Part shown: piece after piece, positions 54,224 through 55,161 of the stretch | How the letters are laid out: each line of letters starts with the position of its first letter | How positions within the stretch are numbered: the first letter of the stretch is position 1 | Assembly: GCF_044324875.1 (NCBI RefSeq) | Contig: NZ_CP172185.1 | DNA length: 64,000 bases | Direction: 5' to 3' (one strand) | Source: Escherichia coli | GTDB lineage: Bacteria; Pseudomonadota; Gammaproteobacteria; Enterobacterales; Enterobacteriaceae | Notes under the pieces: model-generated | What the model was told of the DNA's origin: nothing | Databases searched by the model: none | The model's input: only the letters and a program-made list of their open reading frames with translations | Program-made: the position numbers and the translations under genes

Positions 54224-55161
54224 CCCCTGAATCCTGCCGGGATCTGGCTGTAGTCCACGTTGTCGTAACTGGCTTTGAAGTACGGGTCTTCGCGTTTTTC
54301 TGTGTGCGTGCTGACGGACGGCGATAAGCGCAGGGAAAGCTCATCCCATTTTTCCCGCAACTTCGACGGGCTGAGCACGTTACGGCACCAGAACGGATCG
54401 CGGCTGACGCGGCTGTACATCTCGCAGATTTGTTTGTGAGTACGACCATCCTGCACACACATCAGGCGAATTTCGTTTGCCCAGGCTGTCCAGTTAGGTT
54501 CTTTGGGACGAACCACCTCGCCGTCACATTCGGCGGCCTGCTCGTACAGGGCGATGATTTTTTTCCAGAGCCACTGTGCGCAGGTCAAATCATCCTGCGT
54601 TCCCCACTGGCGCTTTTTAGGGCTGAATACAACCGCATCAGGATGGCGAGTTAAAAAATCCTGTTCATCCATCTGCGTGTCCGGTTGCGAAGCGTCCGGA
54701 CGAGAAGGTTTTTTATCTGATGGATCATGTTTTGATTTTACTGACGGATCCCCGCCAGATTCTGACGGGTGAAAACCCGCTTTTTTGCCAGATTTCGACG
54801 CATCAAATTTTGACGGGTCAGATTTTGATGCGTCAGATTTTGACGGGTCAGAATCTGACAGTTGAGAAAATGCCGCTGCCTGAAGCTTCGCAACGTTAAG
54901 CTGATAAACATTCGACGCATTGCGGTTACCCTGGCGACGCGCCTTACGCGTTAACCAGCCTTCTGCTTCCAGCCGTGCGATAGCCGTTCTGACGGTACTC
55001 ATCCCCGCGCCAATCTGGCGGGCAATGGTTTCAATTGATGGCCAGCACACACCTTCGTCATTACTGAAATCAGCCAGGCGGGCCATAATTGCCACGCTGG
55101 ATAATTTCATGCCTGACGCAGCGCAACCATCCCATACATAGCCGGTTAATTTAGTGCTCAT
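54220..55161 (-). CDS. Replication initiation protein (O-like): N-terminal HTH plus C-terminal DnaT-like domain
   Basis: 313 aa; N-terminal HTH (SVAIMARLADFSNDEGVCWPSIETIARQIGAGMSTVRTAIARLE), acidic Ser/Asp/Lys repeat linker, C-terminal primosome-like domain; SD agagg upstream. Confidence 0.7.
   Translation of the reverse strand: MSTKLTGYVWDGCAASGMKLSSVAIMARLADFSNDEGVCWPSIETIARQIGAGMSTVRTAIARLEAEGWLTRKARRQGNRNASNVYQLNVAKLQAAAFSQLSDSDPSKSDASKSDPSKFDASKSGKKAGFHPSESGGDPSVKSKHDPSDKKPSRPDASQPDTQMDEQDFLTRHPDAVVFSPKKRQWGTQDDLTCAQWLWKKIIALYEQAAECDGEVVRPKEPNWTAWANEIRLMCVQDGRTHKQICEMYSRVSRDPFWCRNVLSPSKLREKWDELSLRLSPSVSTHTEKREDPYFKASYDNVDYSQIPAGFRG
54791..54860. repeat. Iteron-like tandem repeats inside the O-like gene (candidate ori)
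   Basis: About five imperfect copies of a ~14-bp unit (tcagattttgacgg / cagatttcgacg / tcagattttgatgcg / tcagaatctgacag). Confidence 0.45.

Follow-up and report, generated by a model that had tools for sequence, protein, structure and literature searches.

Dyad-symmetric repeats inside the O-family initiator gene of an Escherichia coli prophage as probable iterons of a lambda-type replication origin

What is the function of the short tandem repeats that lie inside the replication initiator gene of an SfII/SfIV-like prophage of Escherichia coli: do they serve only the flexible peptide that they encode, or are they the sites from which the prophage starts its replication? This question was addressed on a stretch of 64,000 nucleotides of contig NZ_CP172185.1 (NCBI RefSeq assembly GCF_044324875.1), referred to here as the window, in which the initiator gene, a member of the O family, is encoded on the minus strand. 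Iterons located within an initiator gene are a textbook arrangement, and finding them is in itself unsurprising. The repeats of the window are likely to be initiator-binding iterons of an origin of the type found in phage lambda (ori-lambda), which the prophage would carry within the gene for its initiator. We infer that the initiator binds these sites, that the DNA is unwound and that replication starts there; how the helicase is recruited is likewise a matter of inference.

The repeats are real. Five tandem units of 15 bp (54787-54861) and a sixth, separate site occupy the linker-coding part of the gene. A preliminary description of this DNA, made from the sequence alone, had reported about five copies of 12-16 bp at 54791-54860, and both Tandem Repeats Finder and a repeat search found this to be correct; what it had missed are the internal dyad symmetry of the units, the sixth site and the adjoining AT-rich element. 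For the array at 54789-54852, Tandem Repeats Finder gives a period of 15 with 4.3 copies (81% matches, score 86) as well as a period of 30 with 2.1 copies (88% matches, score 100), the latter reading being possible because the spacer codon alternates between CCG and GCA. The repeat search returned four to five copies at 15-bp spacing, each unit forming an inverted repeat GTCA-N5-TGAC. Every unit contains the 11-bp near-palindrome TCARAATCTGA and follows, on the coding (minus) strand, the pattern NNN-TCA-RAA-TCT-GAC; in order, the five units read CTG TCAGATTCTGAC, CCG TCAAAATCTGAC, GCA TCAAAATCTGAC, CCG TCAAAATTTGAT and GCG TCGAAATCTGGC, and the sixth copy, CCG TCAGAATCTGGC, stands 22 bp from core 5.

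Exact matches to the degenerate motif TCARAWTYTGA number five in the window, four of them inside 56 bp of the array, against an expectation of 0.16 derived from 100 shuffles, in which the highest count was 2 and a count of 5 was never reached. No second cluster of the motif is present in the 64-kb window. The fifth match is a single copy of TCAGATTTTGA at 60778-60788, situated in the early-left region of the prophage at a distance of about 6 kb. At the protein level the units encode (D[PA]SKS)n, the acidic Ser/Asp/Lys linker already recognized in the preliminary description, and AlphaFold2 predicts disorder for this segment (pLDDT <50 over residues 103-166, the repeat-encoded peptide included).

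Comparison of relatives, which had been proposed as a check on the repeats, revealed selection on their DNA sequence, and several lines of evidence point to the DNA, and not the encoded protein, as its target. Thirteen genes, drawn from Escherichia, Shigella, Salmonella, Klebsiella, Citrobacter, Yersinia and Pantoea, contain 79 repeat units; TCA encodes the first serine of the core in 74/79, TCT the second in 57/58 and AAA the lysine in 60/60, TCA and TCT representing 13% and 12% of the serine codons in the remainder of those 13 genes. The third codon positions of the cores hold 1.7-1.8 bits and are as informative as the first and second ones; spacer positions hold 0.5-0.6 bits. In a codon alignment of eight divergent genes, the same codon was used for the same amino acid in 98/106 cases (0.92) over residues 132-152 versus 668/1234 (0.54) outside residues 100-152, despite an amino-acid identity of the repeat/AT-rich stretch that is below that of both domains. 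By the same measure, values of at least 0.80 were obtained in most intervals of residues 101-165 (0.68 in one), including 0.87-0.92 over residues 151-165.

Polymorphism among 62 distinct near-identical alleles follows the same division, segregating sites being least frequent in the cores (3/66) and most frequent in the 4-nt spacers (7/16), with 0.08 and 0.14 per nucleotide in the N-terminal and C-terminal domains, respectively; the spacer changes are chiefly non-synonymous (P to T, Q or A). Moreover, phiP27 (L005) and Stx2_KH16-043 (L095) keep A6-GGTTTTGACCC-TTCAGAATCTGG at gene nucleotides ~430-470 despite a 1-nt indel, with the result that the conserved spacer and the sixth site are translated as LTLQNL and not as FHPSES. 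Kp4866-6 likewise contains an out-of-frame repeat copy.

The sequence of the sites also covaries with that of the initiator. In the window and phiP27 groups the recognition helix STVRTAI and the wing GNRN occur together with sites of the GTCAGAATCTGAC type; STVKAAI and GGRN are associated with GTCAA-N3-TTGAC, a symmetric change in both half-sites, and STVIGLI and GQRS with GTCCAGAATCTGGAC. This covariation, which involves few lineages only, is as would be expected if the N-terminal domain binds the sites.

An adjacent AT-rich unwinding element, which the preliminary description had suggested looking for, has a candidate in the segment directly promoter-distal to the sites and before the region coding for the C-terminal domain, the same order as in lambda (Table 1). 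It includes the gene-wide minima of stability over 30 bp (54711-54740, 23% GC) and 40 bp (54703-54742, 28% GC), and its two units, both headed by GATC, read GATCCGTCAGTAAAATCAAAACAT and GATCCATCAGATAAAAAACC on the coding strand. No other part of the gene is as well conserved at the nucleotide level across all initiator subgroups, including those whose repeats differ. GATC sites in an AT-rich segment are reminiscent of P1 oriR and of oriC. The spacer between iterons 5 and 6 is conserved as well, its A5-6 tract and GGTTTTCACCC being kept in 13 divergent genes and across the 1-nt frameshift of the phiP27 group. A terminator scan listed a T-run preceded by a small GC hairpin, CGGGTGAAAACCCG, within this spacer (54766-54785); both are on the plus strand, antisense to the initiator. 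On the other side of the AT-rich element, the right-hand conserved segment, which encodes RPDASQPD, contains two CCGGAC motifs 15 bp apart. No DnaA boxes (TTATNCACA) occur in or beside the initiator gene, the nearest one being at 52081; the spacer sequence gTTTTCACc matches a DnaA box at 7/9 positions and was rejected on account of its lack of conservation in Klebsiella.

Table 1. Positions in the window of the initiator gene and of the features of the candidate origin
Feature	Position	Strand	Remarks
O-family replication initiator gene	54220..55161	minus	313 aa; N-terminal winged helix aa 1-100, disordered linker 101-166, lambda-O-like C-terminal domain 167-280, disordered tail 281-313
Iteron 1	54847..54859		perfect 13-bp palindrome GTCAGAATCTGAC; 11-bp core 54848-54858
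Iteron 2, core	54833..54843		plus strand TCAGATTTTGA, coding strand TCAAAATCTGA
Iteron 3, core	54818..54828		TCAGATTTTGA
Iteron 4, core	54803..54813		TCAAATTTTGA
Iteron 5, core	54788..54798		CCAGATTTCGA; degenerate
Conserved spacer, iterons 5-6	54766..54787		coding strand: A6 tract, then GCGGGTTTTCACCCG
Iteron 6, core	54755..54765		plus strand CCAGATTCTGA, coding strand TCAGAATCTGG; adjoins AT-rich element; best conserved site of the family
AT-rich candidate DNA-unwinding element	54703..54752		two 24-bp A-rich units, each headed by GATC (54747, 54723)
Right-hand conserved segment	54667..54702		coding strand CCTTCTCGTCCGGACGCTTCGCAACCGGAC...; synonymous-site conservation still high
Codons for C-terminal tail SQIPAGFRG	54223..54249	minus	short motif common to the E. 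coli DnaT C-terminus

The sole Pfam match of the initiator is the N-terminal winged helix HTH_36, and PHROGs labels it 'replication initiation O-like'. No match to Phage_rep_O (PF04492) was obtained for the initiator at E up to 0.01, a family that is matched by lambda O (E 6e-36) and phi80 gp15 (E 6e-25). BLASTP aligns residues 70-277 with residues 78-270 of lambda O at 30.6% identity (E 8e-26), and by tblastn residues 166-277 are 39.3% identical to the lambda O C-terminal domain (E 1e-17); identity of the C-terminal domain with phi80 gene 15 is 35%. The AlphaFold2 model comprises a winged helix (residues 1-100), the disordered linker, a helical domain (185-280) and a disordered tail. Judged from these alignments, the initiator gene is a genuine relative of lambda O.

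In lambda, the iterons and the AT-rich part within O are the experimentally defined origin, and the number of iterons varies among phages, with 4 in lambda and 6 in the Stx phages 933W and P27 (PMC7466680). The sites of the window fall at gene nucleotides 304-407 and the AT-rich part at 418-457; the corresponding positions are 349-435 and 436-475 in lambda O, and the 21-bp repeats of phi80 gene 15 lie at 367-439. The repeats thus mirror lambda as had been proposed, being placed where lambda and phi80 have their iterons. A winged-helix N-terminus, a C-terminal domain homologous to that of lambda O (39%), at least three dyad repeats in the mid-gene segment encoding the interdomain linker and a promoter-distal AT-rich segment are all present, as in ori-lambda, whereas a helicase-loader (P) or helicase gene beside the initiator is lacking. 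The two systems further differ in the N-terminus (PF04492 in lambda, HTH_36 in the window), in the sites (4 of 19 bp spaced at 20-24 bp in lambda, 5+1 of 11-13 bp at 15 bp in the window), in the two GATC-headed 24-bp units of the AT-rich part of the window and in the tail, IPAGFRG as opposed to NTDWIYGVDL. For specialists the arrangement is an expected one; what sets it apart from lambda is the 15-bp period, the short palindromes, the GATC-headed AT-rich element, the HTH_36 N-terminus and the absence of a loader.

Other replication systems share part of these features. Phi80 gene 15 (X13065.1) has the O-family architecture, and its 21-bp dyad repeats CGGGAA-N6-TTCCCG also encode a repeated peptide; it differs by its P-like gene 14, a lambda-type tail, another repeat sequence and period, and a Phage_rep_O N-terminus. 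Gp44 of phage LLS shares with the initiator of the window its N-terminal domain (81% identity), its repeats, its GATC/AT-rich element and a GFRG tail, and has no helicase or loader gene after it, but its C-terminal domain is Phg_2220_C and not lambda-O-like. A passage of Zheng et al. (2025, PMC12315714) reports the 'O-only' module of phage LLS in 34/314 lambdoid phages and calls its replication 'not yet understood'; the passages of PMC12315714 that were searched describe no origin or iterons for this type, which the 2025 literature presents as unstudied. Iteron plasmids of the pPS10 RepA, R6K pi and P1 RepA type likewise combine repeated sites for a winged-helix initiator with an adjoining AT-rich unwinding element. 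Their iterons of ~17-22 bp are in helical phase and outside the rep gene, with DnaA boxes nearby, an arrangement that the array of the window does not have: its repeats are located inside the initiator coding sequence with a 15-bp period out of helical phase, and its initiator belongs to the phage O family.

The module is widespread. The repeat-bearing segment was found in 2102/5426 complete E. coli genomes, the CPS-53 remnant of K-12 included, and 54 of 79 copies on viral contigs have exactly the linker of the window. The related loci retrieved from viral contigs were almost all near-identical alleles, and these were used for the analysis of polymorphism, divergent relatives being added singly for deeper comparison. 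Nearly all sampled E. coli copies have an array as long as that of the window, and the variants differ by whole units, that is by 15 or 30 bp. Of the isolated-phage records, 38 span 80% or more of the N-terminal module (35 span all of it), and every one of the 38 matches over at least the length of the window's array; plaque-forming phages with the module include SfII, SfIV, LLS, Kati and others. Rare collapses of the array to two sites occur in prophages: a Salmonella allele (L098, 10001-10867) is found in a prophage remnant of ~16 kb without head genes, and an allele with its two sites beside the AT-rich element (L109, 10001-10864) in an E. coli prophage at icd that appears to be complete. 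For lambda, two iterons and the AT-rich region were reported to be sufficient in vitro (PMC7466680), so the latter allele neither refutes nor supports an origin at this place. Free variation of the repeats among otherwise identical initiator genes, which the preliminary description had named as the result that would speak against an origin, was not observed, their number being mostly constant. In E. coli BW25113, the CPS-53/KpLE1 element (L099, 3002-3709) carries an N-terminally truncated initiator pseudogene beside yfdN (PerC family), which has kept the repeats and the AT-rich element and lost the DNA-binding domain.

On these grounds the following sequence of events may be proposed. After induction, the early-right transcript (cro, cII-like gene, orf112, initiator) would be made and translated. 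The winged helix of the initiator, probably in dimeric form, would bind all six of the dyad-symmetric TCARAATCTGA sites, the five tandem ones spaced at 15 bp as well as the one beside the AT-rich element. Together with supercoiling and with transcription across the site, the nucleoprotein complex so formed would then open the GATC-containing AT-rich element of 40-50 bp (54703-54752), and the lambda-O-like C-terminal domain and the conserved C-terminal tail would recruit the host DnaB helicase without the participation of a phage-encoded loader.

Several points weigh against this proposal. The period of 15 bp is out of helical phase, and 11-13 bp is a small size for a palindrome bound by a dimer of winged helices. 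With 23-28% GC over 30-40 bp, the AT-rich element is a modest one. The codon statistics overstate the independence of the observations, given that the copies within an array arose from one another by duplication and that phylogenetic links exist among the seven comparator genes. The two-site allele of the complete prophage L109 means either that two sites suffice or that this prophage can do without the array. With no loader gene present, the last step of the mechanism lacks an explanation. Lastly, the genome papers of SfIV and SfI do not mention an origin; no described origin was found in the literature on SfV, SfII, SfIV and SfI, of which the genome paper of SfV was not covered, so that an earlier description is possible.

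Three other explanations of the conserved repeats were considered. Initiator-bound sites might serve regulation (autorepression, a roadblock to read-through or control of copy number by pairing of arrays) while replication starts elsewhere in the prophage; it is established for plasmids that sites of the iteron type also function in autoregulation and handcuffing, and the extra copy of the motif in the early-left region would fit such a role. This account is nevertheless unlikely, as the position of the sites is collinear with the mapped origins of lambda and phi80, they abut the least stable and best conserved AT-rich segment of the gene, and no other cluster of the motif exists in the window. 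Even less probable is that the array is a low-complexity coding repeat generated by slippage, which provides a flexible acidic linker and whose units are alike in DNA owing to recent duplication, without any function of the DNA. The predicted disorder of the encoded segment, the changes of copy number by whole units among alleles and the existence of collapsed arrays speak for this account. It does not explain the position-specific fixation of codons across genera, the synonymous conservation (0.92 vs 0.54) in a stretch with lower amino-acid identity than the domains, the non-synonymous changes of spacers next to fixed cores, the same DNA in another reading frame in the phiP27 group or the dyad symmetry in each unit.

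Least likely of the three, and very improbable in our estimation, is that the conserved DNA is targeted by some other factor (the neighbouring PerC-like or cII-like regulator, or host SeqA/Dam at the GATC pair) or acts as an RNA, an antisense transcript or a small overlapping gene. Such a role could be read into the two conserved GATC sites and the phage Dam gene that is nearby in most relatives, into the hairpin and T-run of the plus strand and into the antisense open reading frame (ORF) of the window. A conserved overlapping or antisense ORF was rejected as the cause of the constraint, however, since it contains stops in 6/11 relatives; the conserved segment has no match in Rfam, and no promoter-like site was found at 54000-56500. 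Besides, the sequence of the sites tracks the recognition helix of the initiator and not the neighbouring genes, which differ among relatives, and SfIV keeps the element though it is devoid of a methylase gene. Iterons of an ori-lambda-type origin remain the preferred interpretation of the repeats.

How the helicase would be recruited to this origin is a separate matter. No P-, DnaC- or DnaB-like gene is present in the early-right operon, in agreement with the preliminary description, which saw no obvious P-like loader downstream; the host-primosome-dependent mode of initiation that it suggested is a hypothesis. The 'DnaT-like C-terminus' that it attributed to the initiator is reduced to a tail of nine residues: by BLASTP the likeness to DnaT is confined to SQIPAGFRG versus SQIPPGFRG (8/9 identical), the ssDNA-binding three-helix domain of DnaT (Pfam PF17948) was undetected in the initiator, a PDB sequence search with the initiator returned no DnaT and profile comparison with DnaT gave a weak probability of 27-50%. 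The tail has the appearance of a genuine short motif. In the alignment of the initiator family its G and R never vary and its P and F are conserved to at least 90%; relatives whose C-terminal domain is of another kind (LLS, Flotzy, phiNP) keep it; and in DnaT orthologues, where IPxGFRG likewise comes after a variable stretch, conservation of this motif is 90% or higher. Both proteins end in IPxGFRG after a variable, disordered stretch, and database records name the phage protein 'primosomal protein', whereas beyond the tail there is no match in sequence or fold, the phage protein being a sequence-specific winged-helix initiator. The structural papers on DnaT that were consulted do not address the function of its tail.

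The type of tail was compared with the presence of a loader gene in the window (54223-54249) and at loci L108, L100, L101, L007 and L105. Where the tail is of the lambda type (NTDWIYG) a P gene follows, as in lambda, phi80 and P0041, the latter with Phage_lambda_P directly downstream; where it is of the DnaT type a P gene is missing, with a DnaC-like gene present in one case, and this holds for either type of C-terminal domain. This pattern suggests that the tail may specify the partner for helicase loading. More tentatively, the tail [IV]PxGFRG might allow 'O-only' initiators to load the host DnaB without a phage loader by docking on the partner of the DnaT tail (DnaC/DnaB or PriA/PriB), a possibility that we regard as rather less than even.

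The genomic surroundings of the gene are those of the SfII/SfIV-like prophage. At the DNA level it is ~99% identical to a gene that SfIV, SfII (both Shigella phages) and several E. coli phages carry under the designation 'replication/primosomal/O-family', and 38 kb of the window around it match these phages, head and tail genes included. On its 5' side are the cII-like gene and a gene for a 112-aa protein without assigned function, and on its 3' side genes for PerC-like, split Dam, LexA-like, RusA, KilA-N-like and DUF968 proteins and Q. The phage Dam methyltransferase gene (53077-53762, minus strand) is broken into two ORFs, 53409-53762 and 53077-53424, whose matches are to the N-terminal and the C-terminal half of Pfam Dam and which correspond to one 217-aa gene in relatives; it looks like a frameshift or a pseudogene.

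The analysis provides a precise origin annotation (six sites, spacer and GATC-bearing AT-rich element) for a very common prophage replication module, which phage LLS and the serotype-converting Shigella phages SfII and SfIV also carry. The recruitment of the helicase is the more interesting question, one that the present data only frame; with a defined origin and a tail type that tracks the loader gene, it becomes open to simple experiments. If true, the proposed role of the tail would explain the replication of about a tenth of lambdoid phages and would give the tail of DnaT a function.

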